24,000 nucleotides of DNA from an uncultured Actinomycetota bacterium. Its GTDB lineage: Bacteria > Actinomycetota > Actinomycetes > Propionibacteriales > Nocardioidaceae. A model generated the notes under the pieces. That model did not search any database and was not told where the DNA came from. It saw nothing but the letters and a program-made list of their open reading frames with translations. Of this stretch, positions 2,675-17,067 are shown piece by piece (position 1 is the stretch's first letter; every line of letters starts with the position of its first letter). The position numbers and the translations under genes are program-made. The stretch lies in the NCBI GenBank assembly GCA_963765905.1, contig CAVXXY010000006.1, forward strand, positions 699,630-723,629. Reading direction: 5' to 3'.

Positions 2675-3531
2675 GCGAGCCCCCGGACTACGGCTTGTGG
2701 GGCCCGCGTGCCCTTGATGGCGCCGACCATGTCGAGCACCTGACGGGTCTCGGCCACCTCGTGCACGCGGTAGACCTGCGCGCCGAGCCATGCACTGACC
2801 GCAGTAGCGGCGAGCGTCCCCGTCACCCGGTCGCCCAAGCCTTTGCCCAGCGCCTCGCCGACGAAGTCCTTGTTGGAAAGACTCACCAGCACCGGCCAGC
2901 CGGTCGCGCACATCTCGTCGAGGCGCCGGGTGAGCTCCAAGGAGTGCCAGGTGTTCTTGTCGAAGTCGTGCGCCGGGTCGATCAGGATCGACTCGCGGTC
3001 TACTCCTGCCGCGAGAGCTCGCCCGGCCAGGGCAACGGTGTCCTCGATGGCGCTGGCCACCACGTCGTCGTACGACGGACGGTGGGGTGGTGTGCGCGGA
3101 GTCGCGCCGTTGGTGTGCGTGCAGACGTACGCCGCGTCGTGCTCGGCCGCTACGTCCAGCAGGCCGGGGTCGAAGCCGCCCCACGCGTCGTTCAGGACGT
3201 CCGCACCCGCCTGGCACACGGCCTGGCCCACGCTGGCCCGCCAGGTGTCGACGCTGACCACCAGGTCGGGGAACTCGGAACGGACCTTCGCCACGAAGCC
3301 GGCCACCCGGCGGATCTCCTCGGCGTCGTCGACGATCTCGCCCGGCCCCGCCTTGACGCCGCCGATGTCGACCAGGTCGGCTCCCTGCTCGACGACCAGG
3401 CGCACGCGCTCGAGCGCCTTCTCCTCGGCCCAGGTCGCGCCGCGGTCGTAGAAGGAGTCCTTGGTCCGGTTGACGATGGCCATCACCAGGAGGTCGGTGT
3501 CCTGGAAGGTTCGGCGTCCCAACTTGAGCAC
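2671..3531 (-). CDS. folP: dihydropteroate synthase family protein, FolP2 (Rv1207-type) paralogue
   Basis: The pterin-binding TIM-barrel family is clear from DIGGVKAGPGE, SVDTWRA, LNDAWGG, LIDPAHDFDKN, SLSNKDFVGE and YRVHEV. The N-terminus MAIVNRTKDSFYDRGA and C-terminus VRGLA match my recollection of mycobacterial FolP2. Start chosen at GTG 3529-3531, which has GGAGGG about 13 nt upstream. Alternative starts are ATG 3619-3621 and TTG 3640-3642. Confidence 0.8.
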   Translation of the reverse strand: MLKLGRRTFQDTDLLVMAIVNRTKDSFYDRGATWAEEKALERVRLVVEQGADLVDIGGVKAGPGEIVDDAEEIRRVAGFVAKVRSEFPDLVVSVDTWRASVGQAVCQAGADVLNDAWGGFDPGLLDVAAEHDAAYVCTHTNGATPRTPPHRPSYDDVVASAIEDTVALAGRALAAGVDRESILIDPAHDFDKNTWHSLELTRRLDEMCATGWPVLVSLSNKDFVGEALGKGLGDRVTGTLAATAVSAWLGAQVYRVHEVAETRQVLDMVGAIKGTRAPQAVVRGLA

Positions 3532-3651
3532 TGTGGTGAGGCTACCCTCCCCAGGGCCGCGAGTCCGACACGAGCGGACTAGTCCGCATGGAGGGGCGAC
3601 ATCCGCCGCCTCGGAGGGCATGCTTGGGGGTGGATCGAGCAAGGGGGCTCA

Positions 3652-4110
3652 ATGAACAAGACCTATCGCATCCTCGCCAACACCATCGTCATCCTGGTCG
3701 TGGTCCAGGCCATGATGATCGTGTTCGCCGTTGCGGGGCTGTTCCACTGGATCGACGAGGGAGCGACCCTCGACAAGGCCGTGATCGAGGGCTGGGAGGA
3801 CGAGCCGCCCACCTGGCAGGGCGCCATCGGTCACTTCGTCCACGTGATGGCTGGCACGTACCTGATCCCGCTGCTGGGCATCATCCTGCTGGTCGTCGCG
3901 TTCTTCGCGACGGTCCCCGGCGGGGTGAAGTACGCAGCCATCGTCGCGGCCTCCATCGCGGTGCAGGTCACCGTCGGCATCATGGCCGACTCGGCGCCGT
4001 GGCTGGGCCTCGTGCACGGGCTGAACGCCTTCATCCTCTTCATGTCGGCGATCATGGCGGCGCGCGCGGCCAGACCGGCTGACGTGCGGCAGCCTGCGAT
4101 GGCCGGGTGA
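3652..4110 (+). CDS. small integral membrane protein (4 predicted TM helices), unknown function
   Basis: 152-aa ORF with an ATG start preceded by AAGGGGG. It has four hydrophobic stretches and several His residues near the helix ends (FHW, GHFVHVM, LVHGLN). Its stop overlaps the next gene's start as GTGA at 4107-4110. Confidence 0.7.
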   Translation: MNKTYRILANTIVILVVVQAMMIVFAVAGLFHWIDEGATLDKAVIEGWEDEPPTWQGAIGHFVHVMAGTYLIPLLGIILLVVAFFATVPGGVKYAAIVAASIAVQVTVGIMADSAPWLGLVHGLNAFILFMSAIMAARAARPADVRQPAMAG

Positions 4111-5546
4111 CCAAAGCACGACTCCGGCTGCTGCTGGCAGTCGTAGCAACGCTGGCCGTCGTCGCACCACTCGGGTACTTCTGGCAGCAGAGCCGGATGC
4201 CCGGCAGCTACAACGTCATGGAGATGGGCTACGTCGACAACGGCGGCGGCAGTGCGGTCAGCCATGCCCACCATGGCTCGGGCGGCACGAGCGTTGCGGA
4301 CCTCCGGTCCCCCACCGACCGTGCGCCAGACGTGCGGTTCGAGCTGGTCGCGCGCAAGGAGCGCTTCGAGCTCGCCTCGGGACGCGCGTTCGACGGCTAC
4401 ACGCTCAACGGCCAGTCGCCAGGACCGCAGCTGACCGTGCGCCAGGGCCAGCTCGTCGAGGTGGTCCTGCGCAACGAGTCGGTGCCCGACGGGGTGAGCG
4501 CGCACTGGCACGGCGTCGACGTCCCGAACGCCGAGGACGGCGTCGCGGGTGTCACCCAGGCAGCCGTGCGCCGCGGCCAGGAGCACACCTACCGCTTCGT
4601 TGCCGAGCAGGTCGGCACCTACTGGTACCACTCGCACCAGGTCTCGCACACCCAGGTCGTGCGCGGCCTGTTCGGCTCGATCGTCGTGCTGCCGGCCAAG
4701 TCGGACGGGCGCCTGGACATCACCGCCGTCACCCACACGTACGCCGCCGTGCGCACGGTCAACGGCGAGGAGGGCACCACGGTCGTGGCAGCCGACCCCG
4801 GCCAGGTCGCCCGGGTCCGCGTGGTCAACACCGACAACGGCCTGGTGCAGGTGTGGACCGCGTCGCCGTACCGGGTCCTGGCCGTCGACGGCTACGACGT
4901 CAACCAGCCCACGCCCGTCGAGGGGCGGTCGGTGCAGGTCGCGGCCGGCGGGCGGGTCGACCTGGAGGTGACCGCCCCCGCCCGGGTGCAGGTCGGTGGC
5001 GCGACCGCCGTCGTGGTCGGCACCGACAGCGACAAGCCCGAGCAGCCCGACAAGGAGCTCGACCTGCTGTCCTACGGCTCTCCGGCCGACCTTCCGTTCG
5101 ACGCCGAGCAGGCCGACCGGCACTTCGACTACCGGATCGGACGCAAGCCAGGCTTCGTCGACGGCAAGCCCGGGATCTGGTGGTCCATCAACGGGCACCT
5201 CTGGCCGGACGTCCCGATGTTCGCCGTCGAGGAGGGCGACGTCGTCGTCTTCCGCATCAAGAACAGCAGTGGCGAGGTGCACCCGATGCACCTGCACGGC
5301 CACCACGCCGTCGTACTGTCGCGCGACGGGAAGCCCGCTACAGGCAGCCCCTGGTGGGTCGACTCGCTCGACGTCGAGAACGGCGAGGAGTTCGAGATCG
5401 CCTTCCTCGCCGACAACCCCGGGATCTGGATGGACCACTGCCACAACCTCACCCACGCTGCCGAGGGACTCGTGGCACACCTGATGTACGCCGGGGTGAC
5501 CACACCGTTCATGCTTGGCGACGACTCGGGCAACGAGCCGGAGTAG
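4107..5546 (+). CDS. multicopper oxidase (laccase-like), N-terminal signal/anchor
   Basis: All four copper motifs are present: HWHG, YWYHSH, HPMHLHGH and HCHNLTHAAEGL. The N-terminus MTKARLRLLLAVVATLAVVAPLG is hydrophobic. Confidence 0.9.
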   Translation: MTKARLRLLLAVVATLAVVAPLGYFWQQSRMPGSYNVMEMGYVDNGGGSAVSHAHHGSGGTSVADLRSPTDRAPDVRFELVARKERFELASGRAFDGYTLNGQSPGPQLTVRQGQLVEVVLRNESVPDGVSAHWHGVDVPNAEDGVAGVTQAAVRRGQEHTYRFVAEQVGTYWYHSHQVSHTQVVRGLFGSIVVLPAKSDGRLDITAVTHTYAAVRTVNGEEGTTVVAADPGQVARVRVVNTDNGLVQVWTASPYRVLAVDGYDVNQPTPVEGRSVQVAAGGRVDLEVTAPARVQVGGATAVVVGTDSDKPEQPDKELDLLSYGSPADLPFDAEQADRHFDYRIGRKPGFVDGKPGIWWSINGHLWPDVPMFAVEEGDVVVFRIKNSSGEVHPMHLHGHHAVVLSRDGKPATGSPWWVDSLDVENGEEFEIAFLADNPGIWMDHCHNLTHAAEGLVAHLMYAGVTTPFMLGDDSGNEPE

Positions 5547-5547
5547 C

Positions 5548-6279
5548 TCAGCCCGACGACTTGGCGTCGATCGCGCCGGCGACCTGGTTGGCGAGAAGAA
5601 CCGCGACTCGTCGCTGCTCGCGCGTGGGATAGGAGATCCGGGACGCCGAGGTGATCACGAAGTGACCCAGCGTGGTCGGACCACGCTGCACCACCAGCGC
5701 TACCTGCTCGTCGAACGGCAGCCCGTGACGGCCGACGTCGACCGACCGCCCTGCCCGCGTCACGTCACCCTCGTGGTCCATGATCGCCAGCCGGCTGTCG
5801 TGCACCGGCCCGGGCACGTAGTCGCATCGGGGGACGTCCAGCACCGCCTGGATCTGGCGGCGCGCCATCTCGATGCCCTCACGGACGTCGGCGGACGCGA
5901 CCAGCTCCGCCGTAGCGAGCACGCCCTCGAGGTAGCCGGATCGCCGAGCGGCGCGCGCCTGATGTCGATGCCCCCACGTCGCCACCTCGGTGACGGCCAG
6001 GCCGACCACCAGCAGCAGCACGACGACCTCGACGTCGTCGGGGTCGTCGATGGTGAGCCGGTGGTAGGGCTCGGTGAGGAAGAAGTTGAACCAGAGGCCG
6101 GCGCTTAGGGCCGTCAGCAGCCCGGCGAGCCGGTCACCGGTCGCCGCCGCCGCGACTACCCACAGCACCAGCACCAGCGCGGCGGTGGCCGTGGTGACCT
6201 CCGAGCGGAAGGCCGCGAGGACAGCGGAGGTGGTCAGGGTCGCAACAACGCCACCGAACACGTTCCAAGGTCTGTACAC
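5548..6279 (-). CDS. DUF4118 (KdpD-type transmembrane domain) protein with an uncharacterised C-terminal domain and no kinase domain
   Basis: 243 aa. It has three TM helices followed by FFLTEPYHRLTIDDPDDV, the hallmark of the DUF4118/KdpD membrane domain. About 120 further residues follow, without HisKA/HATPase motifs. Confidence 0.65.
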   Translation of the reverse strand: MYRPWNVFGGVVATLTTSAVLAAFRSEVTTATAALVLVLWVVAAAATGDRLAGLLTALSAGLWFNFFLTEPYHRLTIDDPDDVEVVVLLLVVGLAVTEVATWGHRHQARAARRSGYLEGVLATAELVASADVREGIEMARRQIQAVLDVPRCDYVPGPVHDSRLAIMDHEGDVTRAGRSVDVGRHGLPFDEQVALVVQRGPTTLGHFVITSASRISYPTREQRRVAVLLANQVAGAIDAKSSG

Positions 6280-6336: not shown

Positions 6337-7797
6337 TTAGGACTTCGCGGCTGCGTCGCGCCCGGCCCGGCGCCCGAAGAAGGACGCCTCTCCGAGCTGC
6401 GTGCCGGACGAGTACCCCTTGCCGTCGACGGCGATGTTGGACGCGCACGCCCCGGCCGCGTAGAGCCCAGGGACGACGCTGCCGTCGTCTCGGAGCAGTG
6501 CGCCGTCCACGGTCACGCGCAGGCCCCCGCACGAGAAGCCGGCGTAGAAGCACTTGCCCGGAGTGAGGTCGTAGGCGCCCCACGGCCCTTGGTCCAGCGG
6601 TACGACGTACTCCGGCGCCTTGCTGAAGGCGGGGTCCTCCCCCTCGGCGGCAGCCTTGTTGTAGTCGGTCATCGTCGCCACCAGCGCGCCCTCGGGCATG
6701 CCCAGACCGGCCTCCATCTCCTCGATGGTCTCCCAGCCGTCGACGAGCGGCTGGAAGCCGTAGGCCGGACGGTCCATCGTGGCCGAGTCGAGGATGAGGT
6801 AGGCGACCCGGTCGGGCTGGTCGAACACGAAGGCCGACGTGCGCGAGTGGTAGGAGTCCTCGTTGACGAACCGCTGCCCGTGCTTGTTGACCGCGATGCC
6901 CCGCAGCAGCCCCTCGGGCGGGTAGAAGGGGGCGGTGAAGAACGCGCCGTCCAGGTGGTCGGCCACTCCCCCGACCGACTCGCCGAGCCGGATGCCGAGG
7001 CCGTCGTCGTAGGTGTTGCCCAGCGCCATCCCGTTGTCGTCGAGTGCGAGCAGCGACGGCGCGTGCTGCTCGACCATGTCGTGGTTGAGGACGAAGCCGC
7101 CGGCCGCCAGGACGACCGAGCCGGCACGGATGAAGCCGGTCTCGTCGAAGCGGCGCCACGCGACGCCCGCCACGACGTCGCCGGAGATGACCAGAGCGGT
7201 GGCCCCGGTCTCGAAACGCACCTCGACGCCCAGCTCGGCCAGCTTGTCCAGGGCGAGACCCACGACCATCCCGGCGCCACCGGCATCGCCGGTCACGGGC
7301 ACCTTGTGCCCGCGCGGCGCCGGCTTGGCCAGCTCCCTCACCGGGAGGCACTTCTCGTTGCCGGTGAACATCAGGCCCTGCGTCTCGGGCTGGATCACGG
7401 CCTTGTGCGGGTAGAACGAACGCTCGAACTCGAAGCCCAGAGACTCCAGCCACCCGAAGTGCTCCACGCTGCCCTCGGCGTAGAGGCGGATCTTCTCCGG
7501 GTCGCACTCGGGCGACATCGCGCGCAGGTACGCCGCCATCTCCTCGGGGCTGTCGTCCCAGCCGGTCGCCTCCTGCACCGGGGTTCCGCCGCCGAGGTAG
7601 AAGTGACCGCCGGCCATGGCGCTCGTGCAGGTCAGCCGCCCGCCGCGGTCGATCACCAGCACCCGCGCGCCCGCCTCGACGGCCGCCAGCGCGGCAGTGA
7701 CCCCGGCCATGCCCGCGCCGACGACGAGCACGTCCACCTCGTCGGACCAGGCAGGGACGTCCGCAGCCGGGATAGGGGCAGGGGGAGCTGTCGTCAT
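6337..7797 (-). CDS. FAD-binding dehydrogenase (FAD_binding_2 family; 3-ketosteroid dehydrogenase / fumarate reductase flavoprotein-like)
   Basis: 486 aa. The N-terminus carries the dinucleotide fold DVLVVGAGMAGVTAALAA..GARVLVIDR. The C-terminus has PGLYAAGACA, typical of this family. Confidence 0.85.
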   Translation of the reverse strand: MTTAPPAPIPAADVPAWSDEVDVLVVGAGMAGVTAALAAVEAGARVLVIDRGGRLTCTSAMAGGHFYLGGGTPVQEATGWDDSPEEMAAYLRAMSPECDPEKIRLYAEGSVEHFGWLESLGFEFERSFYPHKAVIQPETQGLMFTGNEKCLPVRELAKPAPRGHKVPVTGDAGGAGMVVGLALDKLAELGVEVRFETGATALVISGDVVAGVAWRRFDETGFIRAGSVVLAAGGFVLNHDMVEQHAPSLLALDDNGMALGNTYDDGLGIRLGESVGGVADHLDGAFFTAPFYPPEGLLRGIAVNKHGQRFVNEDSYHSRTSAFVFDQPDRVAYLILDSATMDRPAYGFQPLVDGWETIEEMEAGLGMPEGALVATMTDYNKAAAEGEDPAFSKAPEYVVPLDQGPWGAYDLTPGKCFYAGFSCGGLRVTVDGALLRDDGSVVPGLYAAGACASNIAVDGKGYSSGTQLGEASFFGRRAGRDAAAKS

Positions 7798-7807
7798 GGC
7801 CTCATCT

Positions 7808-7821
7808 TAGAACAGGTTCTA
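7808..7821. promoter_or_regulatory. inverted repeat TAGAAC-AG-GTTCTA, candidate operator next to the FAD dehydrogenase start
   Basis: Perfect 6-bp arms with a 2-bp spacer, 11 nt upstream of the minus-strand ATG at 7797. It lies in the only AT-richer stretch of the intergenic region. Confidence 0.25.
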
Positions 7822-7876
7822 GTTTTGTTGTGGTGTTGGTCGCGTTGCGGGGGCCGGGCCACTCCGCTAGCGTAGT

Positions 7877-7895
7877 TTAGGTAAGGCTTACCTAA
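7877..7895. promoter_or_regulatory. IdeR/DtxR/DmdR-type iron box
   Basis: TTAGGTAAGGCTTACCTAA is a perfect 19-bp palindrome. It matches the consensus TTAGGTTAGGCTAACCTAA at 17 of 19 positions, and the two mismatches are symmetric. It lies 14 nt upstream of the GTG at 7910 and just upstream of the GGAGG RBS at 7901-7905. Confidence 0.8.
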
Positions 7896-7909
7896 CTTCC
7901 GGAGGCGCA

Positions 7910-9436
7910 GTGCTGTTCAACGCGGACAACGTGGACGAGTACGTCGCCACGCTCAACCGGGGCGTCGAGCATCTCGCGGGGCAGCTGCGCCGGCTCCAGG
8001 GACCGGTCACCGGCGTCACGCCCGAGCAGGCCGAGAAGCTCGTGTACGACGTGGACCTCGACCGCCCGCTCCGTGACACCGACGCGGCGCTCGAGGAGCT
8101 CAGCCGGCTCTACCTGGACGACGCGGCCTGGTTCCACGAGCCGACGTACGCCGCGCACCTGAACTGCCCGGTGGTGATCCCCGCTCTGCTCGGCGAGCTG
8201 TTCGTCTCCTCGGTGAACTCGTCGCTGGACACCTTCGACCAGAGCGTCGGTGGCACCTTCATCGAGCGCAAGCTCGTCGACTGGACCGCGGAGCGCATCG
8301 GCTTCGCCCCCGACACCGCCGACGGCGTCTTCACCAGCGGAGGCTCGCAGTCCAACCTGCAGGCGCTGCTGCTCGCACGCGGGCAGACCGACGCTGCGCT
8401 CGGCAGGGTTCGCATCTTCGCCTCGAGCGACAGCCACTTCAGCGTGGTGAAGTCGGCCACGCTGCTCGGCCTGGACGCCGACGCTGTCGTCAAGGTGCCC
8501 ACGGATGCACGGAGGCGGATGGACGTCGGCGAGCTGGACCGGCTGCTGACCCAGAGCCTCGCACTGGGCCTGACCCCCATGGCGGTCGTCGCGACTGCGG
8601 GCACCACCGACTTCGGCGCGATCGACCCGATGGACCGGATCGCCACCGTCACCGAGAAGCACGGCGTCTGGCTGCACGTCGACGCGGCGTACGGTGGCGG
8701 GCTGCTGGTCTCGAAGCGTCGCCGGCACCTGCTGGCCGGCATCGAGCGCGCGGACTCGGTCACGGTGGACTACCACAAGACCTACTTCCAGCCCGTGTCG
8801 TCGAGCGCGCTCGTGGTGTGCGACGCGGGCACTCTCCGGCACGCGACCTACCACGCCGACTACCTCAACCCGGAGTCAGCCGAGCATCCCAACCAGGTCG
8901 ACAAGAGCCTCCAGACGACAAGGCGGTTCGACGCCCTGAAGCTCTGGATGACGCTGCGGATCATGGGGGGCGGCCAGGTCGGTGACTACTTCGACGCGGC
9001 GATCGACCTCGCCCACGAGGTGTACGACGTGCTCCTGACCGACCCCGACTTCGAGGTCGCGGCCCCGCCGACGCTGTCGACGCTGGTCTTCCGGTACCGC
9101 CCGCCGCGGGTGTCGGAGGACTGGGCCGACGAGCTCAACCCGAGACTGCGCTCGGCCCTCTTCGCCGGAGGCTCCGCGGTGGTGGCCGGCACGACGTTCG
9201 AGGGCCGGTCCTGGCTGAAGTTCACCCTGCTCAACCCCGAGGCGAAGCTCGCCGACCTCCTCGGCGTCGTCGACACCCTGCGTGGGATCGGCCATGAGCT
9301 CTCGACCGCTGGTCGAGCAGGTGGCGAGCCGCTGGGCGAGCCACCGTCCGTCGAGACCAACCAAGGCGACGTGCGGTCATTGGTCTCGACGGACGTTCGC
9401 TCCGCTCACTGCTCGACCAGCGTCGGGCGTTCCTGA
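7910..9436 (+). CDS. PLP-dependent group II decarboxylase (DesA/DfoJ-like lysine, ornithine or 2,4-diaminobutyrate decarboxylase for siderophore diamine supply)
   Basis: 508 aa. Motifs are [23 protein letters not shown] and DYHKTYFQP (PLP lysine). About 45 C-terminal residues look like a non-conserved tail. Confidence 0.9.
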
Positions 9437-10740
9437 TGCACACCCAGGACTTCATCGGCATCGGCCTGGGACCGTTCAACCTGGGGCTCGCCTGCCTGAC
9501 CGATCCGATCGACGAGCTCGACGGCGTCTTCCTCGAGGCGCAGCCGCAGTTCGACTGGCACCCAGGGATGATGCTGCCCGAGGCAACCTTGCAGGTGCCG
9601 TTCCTGGCCGACCTGGTGACGATGGCGGACCCGACCTCGCCGTACTCCTTCCTCAGCTACCTCAAGGAGTCGGGGCGGCTCTACTCGTTCTACATCCGCG
9701 AGTCGTTCTACCCGCTTCGTGCCGAGTACAACCGGTACTGCCAGTGGGCTGCCGCCAAGCTCGACAACGTCCGGTTCGGCACTCGCGTGACCAGGGTCGA
9801 GCACGAAGGCGAGGCCTACGTCGTGCACGCGGTCGACGACCGCACGGGCCGCACCGAGTGCTTCAGAGGTCGCAAGCTCGTGCTGGGCGTCGGCACGAAG
9901 CCGGTCGTGCCCAACGCCCTAAGGAACGCCGGCGGGCCGTGGGTGCACTCGGCCCGCTACCTGGAGCACAAGGAGTCGCTGCAGCGGAAGCAGTCGATCA
10001 CGATCGTCGGAAGCGGACAGTCGGCGGCGGAGATCTACCTCGACCTGCTCGGCGACATCGAGTCGTTCGGCTACTCGCTCAACTGGGTCACCCGGTCGCC
10101 GCGCTTCTTCCCCATGGAGTACACCAAGCTCACCCTCGAGATGACCTCGCCGGAGTACACCGCTTACTTCCAGTCGCTCGACCGGGAGACCCGTGCCCGG
10201 CTGGTCAACGAGCAGAAGGGCCTCTACAAGGGGATCAGCGGCGACCTGATCGACACCATCTTCGACACGCTCTACCAGAAGCAGGTGTACGGCGAGGTCC
10301 CGACGCTGCTGCTCACCAACACTGCCCTGGTCACCGCCGAGTGGGACGGCACGTCGTACCGCCTCGGACTGGTGCACGAGGAGCAGAAGCAGCCGATGGA
10401 GCTCGAGACCGACGGCCTCGTGCTGGCCACCGGCTATGCCGCACGCACCCCCTCGTTCGTCGACCCGATCCGCGACCGGATCCGGTGGGACGAGCGCGGT
10501 CGCTTCGCGGCCGGGCCGACGTACGCCGTCGACGGTCCGCCCGAGAGCTCAACCCCGACGATCTTCGTGCAGAACGCCGAGGAGCACACCCACGGGTTCG
10601 TCGCCCCCGACCTGGGCATGGGCGCCTACCGCAACTCGGTGATCATCGCCTCGCTGCTGGGCCGCGAGGTCTACCCGGTCGAGAAGCGGGTCGCCTTCCA
10701 GCACTTCGGGGTGCCCGACTCGCTGCGGGTGGGCCCGTGA
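9436..10740 (+). CDS. lysine N6-hydroxylase / L-ornithine N5-oxygenase family flavin monooxygenase (DesB/DfoA/IucD/AlcA-like)
   Basis: 434 aa. Motifs are [14 protein letters not shown] (FAD), [12 protein letters not shown] (NADPH) and LATGY. Its start overlaps the upstream stop as TGATG. Confidence 0.9.
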
Positions 10741-12869
10741 CGGCCTCGACCGGCGCGACCATCGAGCTGCTGGCGCTCGACCTCGAGCGCCACCTGCCGC
10801 TCCTCCACGCCTGGGTCACCCACCCGCGGGCGGTCTACTGGGGGATGCAGGGTGCGTCGATCGGCGACGTGCGGGAGGAGTACGCCCGCATCGACGCCGA
10901 CCCGCACCACGACGCGTTCCTCGGATACGTCGGCGGCGAGCCCGCGGTCCTCGCCGAGGTCTACGACCCCGCGCACAGCGAGCTCGCCGACCACGTCCGG
11001 CCCGGCGACGTCGGGATGCACGTGCTGGTCGCCCCGCCCGAGGGTGAGCCCCGGCACGGCTTCACCCTCGCGATCCTGCAGGCGGTGATGTGGCACTGCT
11101 TCGCCCCGGCCGAAGTCCGCCGCGTCGTGGTCGAGCCCGACGTACGCAATGACAAGATCGCCCGGCTCAACGCCGCTGTCGGCTTCCGGGTCGCTCGAGA
11201 GATCCCGCTGAAGGGCAAGACCGCCGCTCTCTCGTTCGCCACGCGTGAGGCCTTCCTGCTGACCCTCGCCCAGCGCAACCTGGTCGCCAAGGCGATCGCC
11301 GAGTTCGCCCACGAGCGCATCGTCACGCCCCAGCCGCACGGCGACGGCTGGTTCGGTCTGGGCGACTACCGGTTCCGGGCTCGGGTGCACCCGCTGGAGC
11401 ACTGGGTGGTCGACCCGCTGTCGCTGCCGGAGGGGGTCGACGCGCAGCGGTTCGTCCTCGAGCACGGCCCGGTGCCGGACGCGCTCATGCCGACGTACCT
11501 GGAGGAGATCGCGAGCACTCTCGCCGCGTCGATGTGGAAGCTGGAGCACTCCACTCAGACCGCCGACGAGCTGGTGCACGCGGACTTCCAGACCATCGAG
11601 TCCGCGATGACCGAGGGCCACCCGGCCTTCGTCGCCAACAACGGCCGGATCGGGTTCGGCACCGACGACTACACGTCGTACGCCCCCGAGTGCGGCCAGG
11701 ACCTCGAGCTGGTCTGGGTCGCGTGCCGCCGCGACAAGACGGTCTTCTCCCTCGGCAGGGACGTCGACCCGAAGAGCCTGTACGACGAGGGCGAGGTCGA
11801 CCCGGACTTCGTGGTGCTGCCCGTGCACCCCTGGCAGTGGAAGAACAAGGTCTCGGTCACGTTCGCGCCCGACGTCGCCCGCGGCGATCTCGTCCATCTC
11901 GGCACCAGCCGCGACCGGTTCCGTGCCCAGCAGTCGATCCGCACCTTCTTCAACGTGAGCAGGCCGGAGCGGCACTACGTCAAGACGGCCCTGTCGATCC
12001 AGAACATGGGCTTCATGCGTGGCCTCTCGCCGCGCTACATGGAGGCGACGCCGGCTATCAACGACTGGGTCGCCGACGTCGTCGAGCAGGACCCGGTCCT
12101 GCGCGACCTGGGTTTCGGCGTGCTCCGCGAGCTCGCGGCGGGCGGCTACCGTGGCGACGCCTACCACCTCGTCGAGCGGCCGAACGCACACCAGAAGATG
12201 ATCTCCGCCCTGTGGCGGGAGAGCCCCCTCCCCCGGCTCGCGCCCGGAGAGCGGGTCGCCACCATGGCCTCGCTGCTGCACCGCGACCGCTCCGGCAAGG
12301 CGCTGGTGACCGCCCTGATCCGCGAGTCGGGACGTGCGCCCGCCGTGTGGCTGCGGTCGTACCTCCGGGCCTACGTCACGCCGATCGTGCACTGCCTCTA
12401 CCGCTACGACCTCGCGTTCATGCCGCACGGCGAGAACCTGATCCTGGTGCTGGAGGACCACGTCCCGACCCGGGTGTTCATGAAGGACATCGGCGAGGAG
12501 ATCGCGGTGATGGGCGACCTGCCGCTGCCTGCGGCGGTGGAGCGGGTCCGGGGCTCGTTCCCCGACGACGTGAAGGCGCTCGCTCTGCACACCGACGTCC
12601 TCGACGGCTTCCTGCGCTACCTCGGGGCGATCCTTGCCGACGACGGGGTGATCGGCTCGGACGCGTTCTGGACGCTGGTCCGCGAGGCCGTGCTCGACCA
12701 GGACCCGGAGCTGAAGGAGTCCGCCGAGCGCTACGACCTGCTGCGCCGGGAGTTCCGGCACTCCTGCCTGAACCGCCTCCAGCTGCGCAACACGCTGAGC
12801 ATGGTGGACCTCTCCGACCAGGCCGAGTCACTCATCTTCGCCGGAAGCCTGGTAAACCCGATCGCATGA
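10737..12869 (+). CDS. fused N-hydroxydiamine acyltransferase (IucB/DesC-type GNAT) :: IucA/IucC-family NIS siderophore synthetase (DfoC/BibC-like)
   Basis: GTG at 10737 overlaps the upstream TGA as GTGA. The N-terminal ~175 aa carry [15 protein letters not shown] and VVVEPDVRN (acyltransferase). From about nt 11262 the sequence is IucA/IucC-like, with [19 protein letters not shown] and [11 protein letters not shown]. The upstream part of the 1195-aa track ORF is rejected. Confidence 0.85.
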
Positions 12870-14752
12870 CCTCCTACGAGATCTTCCGCGACGCCTACGG
12901 CATCCCGCACGTCCGAGCCGGCTCGGTGCCGGACCTCGCCCACGGGCAGGGCGTGGCGACGGCCCGGGACCGCGCCTGGCAGCTCGACCTCGAGCGGCTG
13001 CGCGGCGAGGGCCGCGTCGCCTCGCTCCTGGGCGAGCCCGGCGTCGAGTGGGACGTCTTCGCACGACGGGCCCGGATCGCGGAGACGGCCCAGCGGTCGT
13101 TCGCGCTGCTCGACGCCGAGACCCAGGAGTTCGTCTCGGCGTACGTCGACGGGGTGAACGCCGGCCTGGGCTCGAGCAACGCGTCGGTGGAGCATGCCGC
13201 ACTCGACGCCACGCCCGGCCGCTGGGAGCCGTGGGCACCGCTGTCGGTCTTCCTCGTGCAGCAGATCCTCTTCGCGACCTACCCCTCCAAGCTGTGGCGC
13301 CAGCACCTCGTGGACACCATCGGCCCGGAGGCGCTGGGGTGGTTCCGGCAAGAGGGCATGCCCCTCTCCGGTAGCAACGCGTTCGCGGTCGCGGGTGGCC
13401 GGACGCGCTCGGGGAAGCCGCTGGTCGCCGGTGACCCGCACCGGCTCTTCGAGGCGCCGAACGTCTATGCGCAGGTGCGGCTGGCCTGCCCCGAGTTCGA
13501 CGTGGTCGGCTTCACCTTCCCCGGCGTCCCTGGCGTGCAGCACTTCGGACACACCGGCAGCGTGGCCTGGGCCATCACCAACGCGATGGCCGACTACCAG
13601 GACCTCTTCGTCGAGGAGGACCTGACCCACGCCGAGACGCACCTCGAGGAGATCGAGGTCCGCGACGGCGACCCCGTGGAGGTCGACGTCACGATCACCC
13701 CGCGCGGCCCGATCGTGGTCGACCACTTCAGCCTGCGCACCGCGTCGTACGTCTGCGAGGACCTCGGCTTCGGGGCGATCCTGCCGCTGCTGCGCGCCCG
13801 CACGACCGCCGACGTCGACGCCGCGATGGCGCACTGGGTCGAGCCGGTCAACAACGTCGTGATCGCCGACGACCAGGGCACCGTGCTGCACCGGGTCGCC
13901 GGCAAGGTCCCGGTGCGGCCTCTGGAGAACCGCACCCTCCCCGCGCCGGTCGGGAACGAGTGGACCGGCTGGGTCACCGACCTCCCGCGCACGACCGTGG
14001 CGGACGACGGGTTCGTCGTCACCGCCAACCAGAGGCTGTCCCCCGACTACGTCCGGATCGGCGACGACTTCGCGCGGACGGACCGCGCCGACCGGATCAC
14101 CGAGCTGCTCGGCGAGCGCACCGACCTCGCTGTCGACGACCTCGCGGGGATCCTCACCGACACCTGGAGCCGCAAGGCCGGAGGACGCATGGAGGACGTG
14201 GGCGAGGAGTACGTCGCGCACCGGGACGCCCTCGTCGCGGAGGTCGCTGCTCGACCCGAGATCGCCCGGCTGGACGGCGCCGCGCCGTACGGCGAGCTCT
14301 ACGATCCCTGGTTCTTCCTGCCGCTGCGCATCGCCAAGGCGCTGCCCACCGCATCAGTGGTCTCGACGGACGGCTCGCAAGCTCGCCTGCTCGACCAGCG
14401 TGGGGCAGTCTCCTGGCCGAAGCTGTTCCACCCCCTCCACGGGCTCGAGCAGCTCGGCGTCGAGCACCCTCTCGTCGATGCCCTGCACAAGAGCACGGCG
14501 GTCCCGGTCTACGGCGACAACGACTGCGTGCAGGCGATGCACTCGATCCCCGGCTCGCCGGTGTGCAGCCGCGGTCCGGTCGCACGCTACGTGTGGGACC
14601 TGGCCGACCGCTCCAACAGCCACTGGGTGGTGCCGCTCGGCGCGTCCGGCGTACCGGGGCCGCATCACCACGACCAGCTGGACCTCTGGGCGAACGGCCG
14701 GCTCGCGCCGGTGGTCACCGACTGGGACCGACTCGAGAAGGAAGAACCATGA
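12866..14752 (+). CDS. penicillin acylase family (S45, Ntn hydrolase) protein with no signal peptide
   Basis: ATG at 12866 overlaps the upstream stop as ATGA. The N-terminus is [20 protein letters not shown]...GQGVATARDRAWQLD. The predicted autoprocessing site and nucleophile is G-S(170)NAFAV...GKPLVAGDPH. No hydrophobic leader is present. Confidence 0.85.
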   Translation: MTSYEIFRDAYGIPHVRAGSVPDLAHGQGVATARDRAWQLDLERLRGEGRVASLLGEPGVEWDVFARRARIAETAQRSFALLDAETQEFVSAYVDGVNAGLGSSNASVEHAALDATPGRWEPWAPLSVFLVQQILFATYPSKLWRQHLVDTIGPEALGWFRQEGMPLSGSNAFAVAGGRTRSGKPLVAGDPHRLFEAPNVYAQVRLACPEFDVVGFTFPGVPGVQHFGHTGSVAWAITNAMADYQDLFVEEDLTHAETHLEEIEVRDGDPVEVDVTITPRGPIVVDHFSLRTASYVCEDLGFGAILPLLRARTTADVDAAMAHWVEPVNNVVIADDQGTVLHRVAGKVPVRPLENRTLPAPVGNEWTGWVTDLPRTTVADDGFVVTANQRLSPDYVRIGDDFARTDRADRITELLGERTDLAVDDLAGILTDTWSRKAGGRMEDVGEEYVAHRDALVAEVAARPEIARLDGAAPYGELYDPWFFLPLRIAKALPTASVVSTDGSQARLLDQRGAVSWPKLFHPLHGLEQLGVEHPLVDALHKSTAVPVYGDNDCVQAMHSIPGSPVCSRGPVARYVWDLADRSNSHWVVPLGASGVPGPHHHDQLDLWANGRLAPVVTDWDRLEKEEP

Positions 14753-15267
14753 GCGTCAGCCACCGACCCGTCGAGCCTCGCCGCGACTCCGACCTGCTGC
14801 ACGGTTGGGTCACGCAGGACCGTGCGACGTTCTGGGGCATGACCGAGACCACCCGCGACGAGGTCGAGGAGATCTATACCTACATCCAGTCGCAGGAGCA
14901 CCTCGCCGCCTACCTGGTGCACTGGGACGACCAGCCCGTTGCGCTCTACCAGACCTACGACCCGGCCGTCGACGAGATCGGTGAGCACTACGACCGAGAG
15001 CCCGGTGACCTCGGCGCGCACTTCTTCATGGCGCCGGACAAGAGGCCGTGGACGGGCTCGGTGATCCGCTACATCCTCGAGCAGCTGTTCGCGCCGTCCG
15101 CGACGTCGCGCGTCGTCGTGGAGCCGGACGCGCGCAACGCGCGGGCGGTCGGGCTGATGCGCAGGATCGGCTTCGAGCTCGGCCCGCGGGTGGAGCTGCC
15201 GCACAAGCCGGCGCAGTTCGCCTTCTTGACCAGGGCGGCGTACGACGGACTGACGCTGAGCGTCTAA
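14749..15267 (+). CDS. stand-alone IucB/DesC-type siderophore acyltransferase (GNAT, Acetyltransf_8-like)
   Basis: ATG at 14749 overlaps the upstream stop as ATGA. The 172-aa protein has LHGWVTQDRATFWGM and VVVEPDARN. It is a paralogue of the N-terminal domain of the 10737-12869 product. Confidence 0.85.
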   Translation: MSVSHRPVEPRRDSDLLHGWVTQDRATFWGMTETTRDEVEEIYTYIQSQEHLAAYLVHWDDQPVALYQTYDPAVDEIGEHYDREPGDLGAHFFMAPDKRPWTGSVIRYILEQLFAPSATSRVVVEPDARNARAVGLMRRIGFELGPRVELPHKPAQFAFLTRAAYDGLTLSV

Positions 15268-15341
15268 TGCCTGACACTGTCCAGACGCCAGCCGAGTGCG
15301 TTTGGTTCGTCGGAATAGACAGGAGGCGCCAACGGTTCGTA

Positions 15342-15359
15342 TAGTTGAAACGTCAACTA
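15342..15359. promoter_or_regulatory. inverted repeat TAGTTGA-AACG-TCAACTA abutting the RBS of the LLM monooxygenase gene
   Basis: Perfect 7-bp arms with a 4-nt spacer. It ends at the AAGGAG RBS (15359-15364), 15 nt before the ATG at 15374. A GGTTCGT direct repeat lies at 15304-15310 and 15334-15340. Confidence 0.3.
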
Positions 15360-15373
15360 AGGAGTGAGCGGCA

Positions 15374-16459
15374 ATGCAGTTCGGCATCTTCACCGTCGGC
15401 GATGTGACCCCCGACCCCACCACCGGGCGTACGCCGACCGAGCACGAGCGCATCAAGGCGACCATCGAGATCGCCAAGAAGGCCGAGGAGGTCGGGCTCG
15501 ACGTCTTCGCCACGGGCGAGCACCACAACCCGCCGTTCGCCGCCCCCGCCAACCCGCCGGTGCTGCTGGGCAACATCGCGGCGCAGACCTCGAGGCTCAT
15601 CCTCTCGACGAGCACGACGCTGATCACCACGAACGACCCGGTCCGCATCGCGCAGGACTACGCCTACCTTCAGCACCTCTCCGATGGCCGGATGGACCTG
15701 ATGATGGGCCGTGGCAACACCGGCCCGGTCTACCCATGGTTCGGCAAGGACATCCGCGAGGGCATCGCGCTGGCGATCGAGAACTACCACCTGCTGCACC
15801 GGCTCTGGCGCGAGGACGTCGTCGACTGGGAGGGCAAGTTCCGTACGCCGCTGCAGGGGTTCACCTCGACGCCGCGACCGCTGGACGGCGTACCCCCGTT
15901 CATCTGGCACGGCTCGATCCGCTCCCCCGAGATCGCCGAGCAGGCGGCGTACTACGGCGACGGGTTCTTCGCCAACCACATCTTCTGGCCGGCGTCGCAC
16001 ACCCAGCAGATGGTCGGGCTCTACCGTGAGCGCTACGAGCACTACGGCCACGGCTCCGCCGACCAGGCGATCGTCGGGCTCGGCGGCCAGATCTTCATGC
16101 GCCAGAACAGCCAGGACGCGGTCAACGAGTTCCGGCCGTACTTCGACAACGCCCCGGTCTACGGCAACGGTCCCTCGCTGGAGGACTTCATGGCCCAGAC
16201 GCCGCTGACCGTCGGGTCGCCGCAGCAGGTGGTCGAGCGGACGCTCTCCTTCCGGGAGTACGTCGGCGACTACCAGCGCCAGCTGTTCCTCCTCGACCAC
16301 GCCGGGCTCCCGCTGAAGACCGTGCTCGAGCAGCTCGACCTGCTCGGCGAGATCCTCCCCGCCCTGCGGGCCGGGTTCGCCGAGGGCCGGCCGGCGCACG
16401 TGCCCGACGCCCCCACCCACCAGTCGCTGCTCGCCACCGCGCAGGAGGTCACCGCATGA
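15374..16459 (+). CDS. LLM-class (luciferase-like) FMN-dependent oxidoreductase, probably the CE1758-type family
   Basis: 361 aa. The N-terminus MQFGIFTVGDVTPDPTTGRTPTEHERI...GLDVFATGEHHNPPF and the later LMMGRGN motif are typical of luciferase-like monooxygenases. The gene is coupled to an FMN reductase gene. Confidence 0.85.
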   Translation: MQFGIFTVGDVTPDPTTGRTPTEHERIKATIEIAKKAEEVGLDVFATGEHHNPPFAAPANPPVLLGNIAAQTSRLILSTSTTLITTNDPVRIAQDYAYLQHLSDGRMDLMMGRGNTGPVYPWFGKDIREGIALAIENYHLLHRLWREDVVDWEGKFRTPLQGFTSTPRPLDGVPPFIWHGSIRSPEIAEQAAYYGDGFFANHIFWPASHTQQMVGLYRERYEHYGHGSADQAIVGLGGQIFMRQNSQDAVNEFRPYFDNAPVYGNGPSLEDFMAQTPLTVGSPQQVVERTLSFREYVGDYQRQLFLLDHAGLPLKTVLEQLDLLGEILPALRAGFAEGRPAHVPDAPTHQSLLATAQEVTA

Positions 16460-17067
16460 CCAGGATCGTCGTCGTCAGCGCCGGGCTCTCGCAGCCGTCG
16501 TCGACGCGCCTGCTCGCCGACCGGCTCACCGCCGCGGCCGTCGCTCGCATCGAGTCCGCGGGCCGCCCGGTGGGGGTGGAGGTGGTCGAGCTGCGCACGC
16601 TCGCCCACGGTCTGGCCGACAACCTGCTGACCGGCTTCGCCACCGGTGACCTCGCCGCGGCCGTCGAGTCGGTCGAGGCAGCCGACGCGCTGATCGTCGT
16701 GACGCCGATCTTCTCCGCGTCGTACAGCGGTCTGTTCAAGACGTTCTTCGACGTGCTGCCGGACGACGCCCTGCAGGGGAAGCCCGTGCTCATCGCGGCC
16801 ACCGCCGGCACGGCGCGGCACAGCCTCGCGCTCGAGCACGCCCTGCGCCCGCTCTTCGCGCACCTGCACGCCGTGGTCGTTCCCACCGCGGTTTTCGCGG
16901 CGACCGAGGACTTCGGGCACGCCGGGCTCCAGGAACGCGTCGAGCGCGCGGCCAAGGAGCTCGCCGAGCTGGTGGTCGGCCGGGTCGCGGCGACTCCCGC
17001 AGCCTCGCCCCGCGCCGCCAACGGCGTCGAGTTCACCCCGTTCGACCAGCTCCTCCACGCGCGCTGA
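16456..17067 (+). CDS. NADPH-dependent FMN reductase (LLM-partnered, CE1759-type)
   Basis: ATGA overlap with the LLM gene. The N-terminus is the flavodoxin-like MTRIVVVSAGLSQPSSTRLL, followed by ADALIVVTPIFSASYSGLFKTFFD. Confidence 0.8.
   Translation: MTRIVVVSAGLSQPSSTRLLADRLTAAAVARIESAGRPVGVEVVELRTLAHGLADNLLTGFATGDLAAAVESVEAADALIVVTPIFSASYSGLFKTFFDVLPDDALQGKPVLIAATAGTARHSLALEHALRPLFAHLHAVVVPTAVFAATEDFGHAGLQERVERAAKELAELVVGRVAATPAASPRAANGVEFTPFDQLLHAR

Follow-up and report, generated by a model that had tools for sequence, protein, structure and literature searches.

The five-gene locus at 7910–15267 of the window (the whole 24-kb stretch of DNA that was analysed) raised the question of whether a siderophore operon carrying two enzymes beyond its assembly core makes an unusual product or belongs to a system that is already known. 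The analysis suggested, at a probability of about 0.8 and judging from the sequence, that the region is an iron-repressed desA-desB-desC::D-desG-desH operon for desferrioxamine-type hydroxamate siderophores. It is an ordinary example of the known desABCD+desGH system in a rather divergent, compact Nocardioidaceae form.

Gene content and core enzymes

Five genes on the same strand were delineated at 7910–15267 by the third-position GC frame analysis and Pfam searches, and both agreed with the order given in the original prediction, i.e., decarboxylase, N-hydroxylase, GNAT::IucA/IucC fusion, acylase and GNAT. On the plus strand, desA (7910–9436) encodes a PLP-dependent decarboxylase of 508 aa (PF00282, E 3e-58), desB (9436–10740) an FAD-dependent diamine N-hydroxylase of 434 aa (PF13434 Lys/Orn N-monooxygenase, E 8e-124) and the desC::desD fusion (10737–12869) a protein of 710 aa (PF13523 + PF04183 + PF06276). 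They are followed on this strand by desG (12866–14752), encoding a penicillin-amidase-family Ntn-hydrolase of 628 aa (PF01804, E 7e-135), and desH (14749–15267), encoding a stand-alone GNAT N-acyltransferase of 172 aa (PF13523, E 7e-42). All six catalytic domains were present at full length according to Pfam, and none of the five operon proteins reached the cut-off of an NCBIfam model. The junctions read from the sequence were exactly those claimed earlier, TGATG at 9434–9438, GTGA at 10737–10740, ATGA at 12866–12869 and ATGA at 14749–14752, with an overlap of 1 or 4 nt at each of the four. The four families of the published antiSMASH rule for desABCD (PF00282 + PF13434 + PF13523 + PF04183 within 5 kb) all lie in the region 7910–12869, and desG and desH, which overlap by 4 nt, fit the desGH rule (co-operonic PF01804 and PF13523 genes no more than 1 kb apart); both rules were taken from PMC12161575.

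The proposed dfoJAC-type core was borne out by comparison with solved structures. The best match of DesA was DfoJ 5o5c (E 4e-138), and the enzyme would convert lysine to cadaverine. Its best NCBIfam match was a diaminobutyrate decarboxylase model, far under its cut-off, and lysine, ornithine and diaminobutyrate are all candidate substrates. DesC::D comprises an acyl-CoA N-acyltransferase domain (nt 10779–11207), an IucA/IucC domain (nt 11583–12281) and a C-terminal FhuF-like domain (nt 12348–12791). The synthetase is of the type C NIS kind, as it matched DfoC 5o7o over its full length (E 4e-188) and DesD 7tgn (E 5e-167); the E-values against DesD 7tgn/6p63 were about 1e-161 to 1e-167, with IucC and AsbB scoring far lower. 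In a neighbor-joining (NJ) analysis, the N-terminal domain was placed inside the monophyletic DesC clade. The desC::D fusion is common in Nocardioides, Pimelobacter, Aeromicrobium, Actinoplanes and Asanoa and was found in 8 of 11 related loci. The same core, a decarboxylase, an N-hydroxylase and a fused acyltransferase-synthetase, is found in the Erwinia/Pantoea dfoJAC and the bibABC-type clusters. These clusters produce macrocycles, mainly DFO E or bisucaberin, and they are not known to contain desG or desH or to be under actinobacterial iron-box control.

Iron box and transcription of the operon

An IdeR/DmdR-type iron box TTAGGTAAGGCTTACCTAA was located at 7877–7895 (strand not assigned), with two mismatches to the consensus TTAGGTTAGGCTAACCTAA. 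It was the single match in the window, and no match was obtained in 100 shuffles. The 3' end of the box lies 14 nt from the GTG start of desA, whose ribosome-binding site GGAGG was read from the sequence at 7901–7905 on the plus strand. An iron box (≤4 mismatches) was present once per locus, directly 5' of desA, in 10 of the 11 related five-gene loci. Another iron-box-like match at 3532–3548, with one mismatch to a degenerate pattern, was judged to be due to chance (0.24 expected).

A KstR-type palindrome was also observed in the promoter region, at 7808–7821, and it probably serves the divergent gene. The claim that the iron box is the only obvious control element thus needs correction, as it did not take this palindrome into account.

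The control of the operon by the iron box and its transcription as a single, translationally coupled mRNA appeared plausible, with both the box and the overlaps being conserved in relatives; overlapping junctions were also kept in the related loci L010, L012 and L084. The only promoter-like match in the region 7700–15500, TAGACA-18-TATAGT (15316–15345, plus strand; 0.2 expected by chance), was found in the 106-nt gap 3' of desH and delimits the operon on its 3' side. A terminator scan of 7700–15500 revealed nothing. It is very unlikely that the five genes are split into several transcription units, with desG-desH or desC::D under internal promoters of their own. Such an arrangement is suggested by Streptomyces, in which desGH is a locus of its own under its own iron box, and by the closest relatives of the window, which express desG without upstream des genes and in which the sequence just 5' of desG can suffice. 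In the window, however, every junction overlaps, leaving no intergenic space, the interval 7910–15267 contained neither promoter- or terminator-like sites nor a second iron box, and L010, L012 and P. simplex 3E keep the identical overlaps.

With the operon taken as one unit, an IdeR/DmdR-type repressor encoded elsewhere would bind 7877–7895, immediately 5' of the ribosome-binding site, and block transcription when iron is plentiful. When iron is scarce, one mRNA would be made and its five cistrons would be translated in a coupled manner via the 1- and 4-nt overlaps. By homology, DesA would form cadaverine from lysine, DesB would N-hydroxylate it, and the DesC domain would succinylate the product to N-hydroxy-N-succinylcadaverine (HSC), which the fused DesD domain would oligomerise and close into a ring, giving bisucaberin or desferrioxamine E. 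According to a published proposal, with genetic evidence from S. coelicolor only, DesG, a self-processing Ser-nucleophile amidase, would strip the succinyl group from part of the HSC pool. The freed N-hydroxycadaverine would, as also proposed, be re-acylated by DesH, typically with acetyl-CoA, and together the two enzymes would supply the cap unit required for linear desferrioxamine B-type products.

DesG, DesH and the expected product

The two additional enzymes had been expected to shift the product away from textbook ferrioxamines. This expectation was not upheld, as the enzymes are the known DesG and DesH, described in 2017 (PMC5812494) and 2025 (PMC12161575), and S. coelicolor needs both of them for the normal production of desferrioxamine B, a textbook linear ferrioxamine. 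In S. coelicolor mutants, the DFO B level decreased about 1000-fold (desG) and about 16-fold (desH) and DFO E increased (PMC12161575). The 2026 literature continues to call both enzymatic activities 'putative' or 'proposed' (PMC13495013).

An identical five-gene cluster with a characterised product, which had been named beforehand as a ground for refutation, is essentially at hand in Pimelobacter (Nocardioides) simplex 3E (GCA_016803235.1, JADCLI010000004.1), a member of the same family, Nocardioidaceae. The strain is listed as desG+ desH+, and its known products are bisucaberin and desferrioxamines B, D3 and E (Hofmann et al. 2021, PMC7824959). Its five genes follow one another in the order seen in the window and share a strand, desC and desD are fused, all four junctions overlap (GTGA, TGATG, ATGA, ATGA), and a near-identical iron box TTAGGTAAGGCTTACCTGA lies about 22 nt upstream of desA. 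The proteins are 44–62% identical to those of the window (DesA 62%, DesB 61%, DesG 44%). The two loci differ in that DesG has 672 aa in P. simplex 3E and 628 aa in the window, that an MFS transporter gene follows desH only in P. simplex 3E, and that the genomic contexts are unrelated. Because the same operon occurs in P. simplex 3E and the extra genes are desG and desH, textbook ferrioxamines are the expected products; by analogy with the chemistry of that strain, the operon would yield desferrioxamine or bisucaberin.

In S. coelicolor, desABCD (SCO2782-85) and desJGH (SCO4048-50) provide the same enzyme set under DmdR1 iron-box control (PMC12161575), and desG lies next to desH in a shared operon there, as in the window. 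In contrast to the one merged operon of the window, the Streptomyces genes form two separate loci, each with its own iron box. In S. coelicolor, DesC and DesD are separate proteins, whereas they are fused in the window, and desE, desF and desJ (uptake/reductase) are linked, whereas none of the three is present in the window.

The G169-S170-N171 motif of DesG was invariant in 12 homologues and retains the Ntn-hydrolase nucleophile. Residue 170 aligned to the first residue of the beta chain of 35sz, 4hsr and penicillin G acylase, and self-cleavage is predicted before Ser170 (codon 13373–13375). In the alignment with mature alpha chains, the N-terminus of DesG (20 residues) coincided with their start, and no hydrophobic leader was found there by eye. 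DesG is predicted to be cytoplasmic. PvdQ of Pseudomonas is likewise a siderophore-linked member of the Ntn-hydrolase superfamily, and its nucleophile region aligns with that of DesG. PvdQ is, however, periplasmic and takes a fatty acyl chain off an NRPS product in pyoverdine maturation, whereas DesG has no N-terminal signal-like segment. The assignment of DesG as a PvdQ-type periplasmic acylase was rejected, with 33.8 bits to the PvdQ equivalog model against a cut-off of 950 and a similarity over only about 70 residues. DesG falls in a shortened clade (608–635 aa), which has three deletions when compared with other DesG proteins. Given this membership and the 44% identity to the P. simplex protein, its substrate could differ.

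DesH is a paralogue of DesC. Its distance was ≤0.63 to all 69 other DesH-position sequences and ≥0.64 to any DesC. In the NJ tree of 87 GNAT sequences, the 17 DesC sequences formed one clade with no DesH inside, and the GNAT of the window grouped with DesH.

It is unlikely that the operon makes aryl- or otherwise unusually capped desferrioxamines, with DesG adding phenylacetyl, as in the 2017 Cruz-Morales model (PMC5812494), or DesH taking a non-acetyl acyl-CoA. Micrococcus sp. CH3/CH7, also non-Streptomyces actinobacteria with a penicillin-amidase-family desG inside the des cluster, do yield aryl-capped desferrioxamines (PMC5812494), the DesG of the window is of the divergent short form, and the acyl-CoA specificity of DesH is not revealed by its sequence. 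In Micrococcus, however, desG and desH are one fused gene (PMC12161575), whereas they are separate, overlapping genes in the window. P. simplex 3E, with an equal layout, was reported to produce DFO B, D3, E and bisucaberin and not aryl forms, S. coelicolor has desGH but no aryl-DFOs were identified there (PMC12161575), and succinyl- and glutaryl-amide hydrolases (7ea4, 4hsr) were among the best solved-structure matches of DesG. A main role of DesG in the hydrolysis of finished or imported ferrioxamines, serving iron release, recycling or the use of foreign siderophores instead of HSC editing, is quite unlikely. It draws on at least four syntenic relatives with an intact GSN-containing desG and without desABCD at the locus, three of which also lack desH, and on a desG dN/dS of 0.34 between two such orphans, which is not neutral. 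These orphans could nevertheless be recent relics, with the dN/dS of desG being the highest among the neighbouring genes, and most of the relatives are metagenome bins, in whose genomes the des cluster may sit elsewhere. Translation of desG is coupled to that of the biosynthetic genes in the window, desG is nearly always followed by desH across 80 loci, and the genetics of S. coelicolor indicate a biosynthetic role (PMC12161575). The formation of ordinary ferrioxamines, with DesG and DesH supplying the cap unit, remained the preferred reading.

Relatives with an orphan desG and genomic context

The nearest relatives place the source of the window in Nocardioidaceae, and an exact-sequence search with its DesG retrieved no record. 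The closest syntenic relatives of the window lack exactly 7825–12847 (5,023 bp), a segment that holds the iron box together with desA, desB and almost the whole of desC::D, but they keep an intact orphan desG. In these relatives, of which there are at least four, the GSN motif is kept and desH is mostly gone. A relic resembling the 3' end of desD upstream of the orphan desG favours a deletion of 7825–12847 in the relatives, as does the even divergence of all five window genes from those of other genera. The DesG of the window is, however, nested among orphan DesG proteins in the tree, and a deletion would then need several events or recombination. The composition of 7825–12847 gave no signal for insertion versus deletion. 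As desG is kept without desABCD in relatives, it fits a purely biosynthetic role poorly. Still, it seems improbable that the short-clade Nocardioidaceae DesG acts independently of the cell's own desferrioxamine assembly, e.g., by cleaving imported ferrioxamines or N-succinyl-hydroxamate units. If it did, the window would carry the producer form of a single locus that is polymorphic between producers and non-producers.

No binding protein, ABC/MFS transporter, SIP/FhuF reductase or transcription factor was detected with Pfam and NCBIfam among all other called genes of the 24 kb, in agreement with the earlier claim, and three small ORFs had no family matches. The absence of uptake genes is no peculiarity, being the norm for this operon in Nocardioidaceae. 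The same gene order was found in at least 11 other genomes of the family with unrelated flanks, in which only an MFS gene recurred. Two candidates for a hidden reductase were rejected. The NADPH-FMN reductase gene at 16456–17067 overlaps with its start the stop codon of a gene for a luciferase-like monooxygenase, an arrangement typical of two-component monooxygenases, and relatives without des genes keep both genes in synteny. The PF06276 'FhuF' match is the C-terminal domain that DesD/DfoC-type synthetases normally carry, as judged from the end-to-end alignment. The genes for export, for ferrioxamine uptake and for iron release must lie in other parts of the genome.

The operon adds little to the knowledge of siderophore biosynthesis. 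The clean 5-kb presence/absence of the producer and orphan-desG alleles is usable for studying siderophore loss and stand-alone DesG, although its value is modest. The single-operon layout, with the fused desC::D and the coupled desG/desH, is a conserved self-contained module occurring in unrelated genomic contexts.

Gene content and operator of the operon

In the window (G+C of about 70%), reading frames were picked by third-position G+C and families were assigned by Pfam. The region 7910–15267 was filled by five co-directional genes encoding a PLP-dependent decarboxylase (DesA, PF00282, 7910–9436), a lysine/ornithine-type N-monooxygenase (PF13434, 9436–10740), a 710-aa fusion of a GNAT domain (PF13523) with IucA/IucC (PF04183) and the usual FhuF-like C-terminal domain (PF06276) (10737–12869), a penicillin-amidase family protein (DesG, PF01804, 12866–14752) and a 172-aa GNAT protein (DesH, PF13523, 14749–15267). 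All four junctions overlapped, at TGATG (9434–9438), GTGA (10737–10740), ATGA (12866–12869) and ATGA (14749–14752). The best match of DesA was DfoJ, and the fusion protein matched DfoC (5o7o, E = 4e-188) and DesD along its whole length. Both gene sets of the published detection rules, desABCD and desGH, were present.

The iron box TTAGGTAAGGCTTACCTAA was located at 7877–7895, with two mismatches to the actinobacterial consensus. It was the only such site in 24 kb and 100 shuffles gave no match. The GTG start lies 14 nt from its end, and the intervening stretch holds a GGAGG ribosome-binding site. Gene content, overlaps, iron box and flanks were checked and agreed with the original prediction, which also read the iron-box regulation correctly; repression by iron and co-transcription are themselves predicted.

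Neighbourhood of the operon

The reported absence of transport, reductase and regulator genes nearby was confirmed by family scans over the 24 kb. The other window genes encode two thioesterases, a tRNA-editing-domain protein, a pterin-binding enzyme, a multicopper oxidase, a DUF4118 membrane protein, an FAD-binding oxidoreductase, a luciferase-like monooxygenase with its FMN reductase, a mycothiol S-transferase-family (DinB-like) protein, a flavin oxidoreductase, an aldehyde dehydrogenase, an acyl-CoA dehydrogenase, a PGA_cap protein and a PhoX fragment, with no siderophore-binding protein, ABC/MFS transporter, SIP/FhuF-type reductase or transcription factor among them.

The flanks of related five-gene loci were mutually unrelated. 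Among the 25 most frequent families of 97 flanking ORFs from 11 loci, a list that leaves out families seen once, MFS_1 (7 members) was the sole transport family, and no siderophore-binding protein, FecCD, ABC or SIP families occurred. Because of these unrelated flanks and the restriction of listed transport families to MFS_1, the absence of uptake genes is normal for the five-gene operon in Nocardioidaceae. In one Nocardioides subgroup an MFS gene points away from desA and has the iron-box region in common with it. MFS genes stand beside the operon in loci L002, L007, L008, L011 and L018 (about 3510–4860, minus strand), and in Pimelobacter simplex 3E (L084) one lies 3' of desH (15054–16637). 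The MFS protein of some Nocardioidaceae loci, which the window lacks, is a candidate exporter; the remaining related loci had nothing relevant in their flanks.

Downstream of the operon, a CE1758-family luciferase-like monooxygenase and an NADPH-FMN reductase gene overlap by 4 nt (15374–17067). The pair is syntenic in all close relatives, whether des genes are present or not, and therefore lies outside the siderophore operon.

Two further operator-like sites were noted. The sequence TGTGGTGAGGCTACCCT (3532–3548) has one mismatch to the degenerate iron-box pattern TNANGNNAGGCTNNCCT and is flanked by the divergent pterin-binding gene and a 164-aa ORF to which no family was assigned. It is probably a chance match (0.24 expected) and fails to fit the full 19-nt consensus. 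The palindrome TAGAACAGGTTCTA (7808–7821) fits the KstR operator motif TnnAACnnGTTnnA (PMC1995591) and occurs only once in the window, where chance alone would give 0.03 matches. It sits 11 nt 5' of the divergently oriented FAD-binding gene (6337–7797), which NCBIfam places in family PRK07121 and which is related to 3-ketosteroid dehydrogenases. As the palindrome is kept in relatives with no iron box (L081 9964–9977; similar in L083, L085 and L087), it probably controls this divergent gene.

The closest relatives of the window DesG (61–70% identity) came from metagenome-derived assemblies, two labelled as Nocardioidaceae bins. They share the genomic neighbourhood and lack the 5,023 bp at 7825–12847, a segment with the iron box, desA, desB and desC::D except for its final 22 nt (corresponding sites: L081 9978–9984; L083 about 9886–9985; L085 9945–9983; L087 239–279). 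Their orphan desG directly follows a KstR-type operator, with desH kept in one lineage and lost in three. The orphan genes have an intact catalytic motif and a dN/dS of about 0.34, somewhat above most neighbouring genes. About 20 nt upstream of orphan desG resemble the conserved desD 3' end, and the five window genes are all about equally distant from other genera; both points favour deletion in the relatives. However, the window was nested among the orphans in the DesG tree (orphan clade excluding it in 0/200 bootstrap replicates), which speaks against deletion, so that insertion and deletion may both be argued. The 243-aa DUF4118 gene (5548–6279, minus strand) has no counterpart in L081 and L085, in which almost nothing separates the multicopper oxidase gene from the FAD-binding gene, and marks a second small indel.

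Identity of DesG and DesH

The two extra enzymes had been expected to yield an unusual product; they are the already named desG and desH. The penicillin-amidase gene in or near des clusters was named desG by Cruz-Morales et al. 2017 (PMC5812494), where DesC-DesD fusions in Actinobacteria were also noted. The iron-box-controlled desJGH locus of S. coelicolor encodes an amidase (desG) and a DesC-like acyltransferase (desH), whose knockouts lowered desferrioxamine B about 1000-fold and about 16-fold, respectively, and raised desferrioxamine E (PMC12161575, 2025). Both activities were still termed putative as of 2026.

The Gly169-Ser170-Asn171 motif of DesG was invariant, and Ser170 aligned with the first beta-chain residue of acylases of solved structure. 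Since its N-terminus lined up with the point where mature alpha chains begin and lacked a hydrophobic leader on inspection, DesG is probably cytoplasmic. It belongs to a monophyletic short clade (P0001–P0007, 608–635 aa, 200/200 bootstraps) with three deletions relative to other DesG proteins (about 640–710 aa), and its predicted beta chain has only about 459 aa versus 543–576 aa in solved relatives. Neighbour joining of 87 GNAT sequences placed the fusion's N-terminal domain inside a clean DesC clade, and each DesH sequence was nearer to the terminal GNAT than any DesC was. DesG-DesH fusions (PF01804 and PF13523 in one protein) were seen in P0034 (Nocardioides cavernaquae, 813 aa), P0058 and P0105, extending their occurrence to Nocardioides and metagenomic sequences beyond the reported Micrococcus and Streptomyces atratus.

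The same layout in other genomes and the proposed function

DesG homologues number in the thousands, the nearest named ones being from Nocardioidaceae. The window proteins were compared against 80 loci from a genome scan across species representatives. In 11 complete loci (Nocardioides, Aeromicrobium and unclassified Actinomycetota bins) and in two cut by contig ends, the genes followed the order A-B-C(D)-G-H on a single strand. The C::D fusion was present in 8 of the 11, two (L010 and L012) had overlaps of 1, 4, 4 and 4 nt exactly as in the window, and 10 carried one iron box per locus of about 22 kb, directly upstream of desA. Streptomyces loci hold just desG-desH, preceded by an iron box of their own; in four other loci (two Micromonospora, one Kitasatospora and one Streptomyces) desABCD is present as well, upstream of desG and on the opposite strand.

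Decisive here is Pimelobacter (Nocardioides) simplex 3E (JADCLI010000004.1), which has the same five genes, the same fusion, four overlapping junctions and the iron box TTAGGTAAGGCTTACCTGA. This strain makes bisucaberin and desferrioxamines B, D3 and E, as determined by HRMS (PMC7824959), and was scored desG+ desH+ in a 2025 survey (PMC12161575). Its gene layout and chemistry thus tie an identical operon to characterised textbook products, contrary to the original prediction, and the unusual product is not supported.

For regulation, co-transcription, substrates and products, we infer as the best-supported explanation a single iron-repressed transcript, from which DesA, DesB, DesC and DesD activities would give macrocyclic products, while DesG and DesH would draw on part of the N-hydroxy-N-succinylcadaverine pool to supply linear products, desferrioxamine B among them, with a cap unit carrying acetyl or another acyl group. 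The nearest solved relatives of DesG include the penicillin-acylase-family protein 35sz, glutaryl-7-ACA acylase and D-succinylase, which means that cleavage of succinyl or glutaryl amides is found among them. Action of DesG on finished or imported ferrioxamines is given low confidence, and aryl or other unusual caps appear similarly doubtful. Internal promoters would split the transcript and are also unlikely; no promoter-like or terminator-like match was found within the operon, and the sole promoter-like site (15316–15345), in the 106-nt gap 3' of the last gene, is that of the monooxygenase/reductase pair. The window operon is a new, fairly divergent example of a cluster type that is already known and has been characterised chemically.
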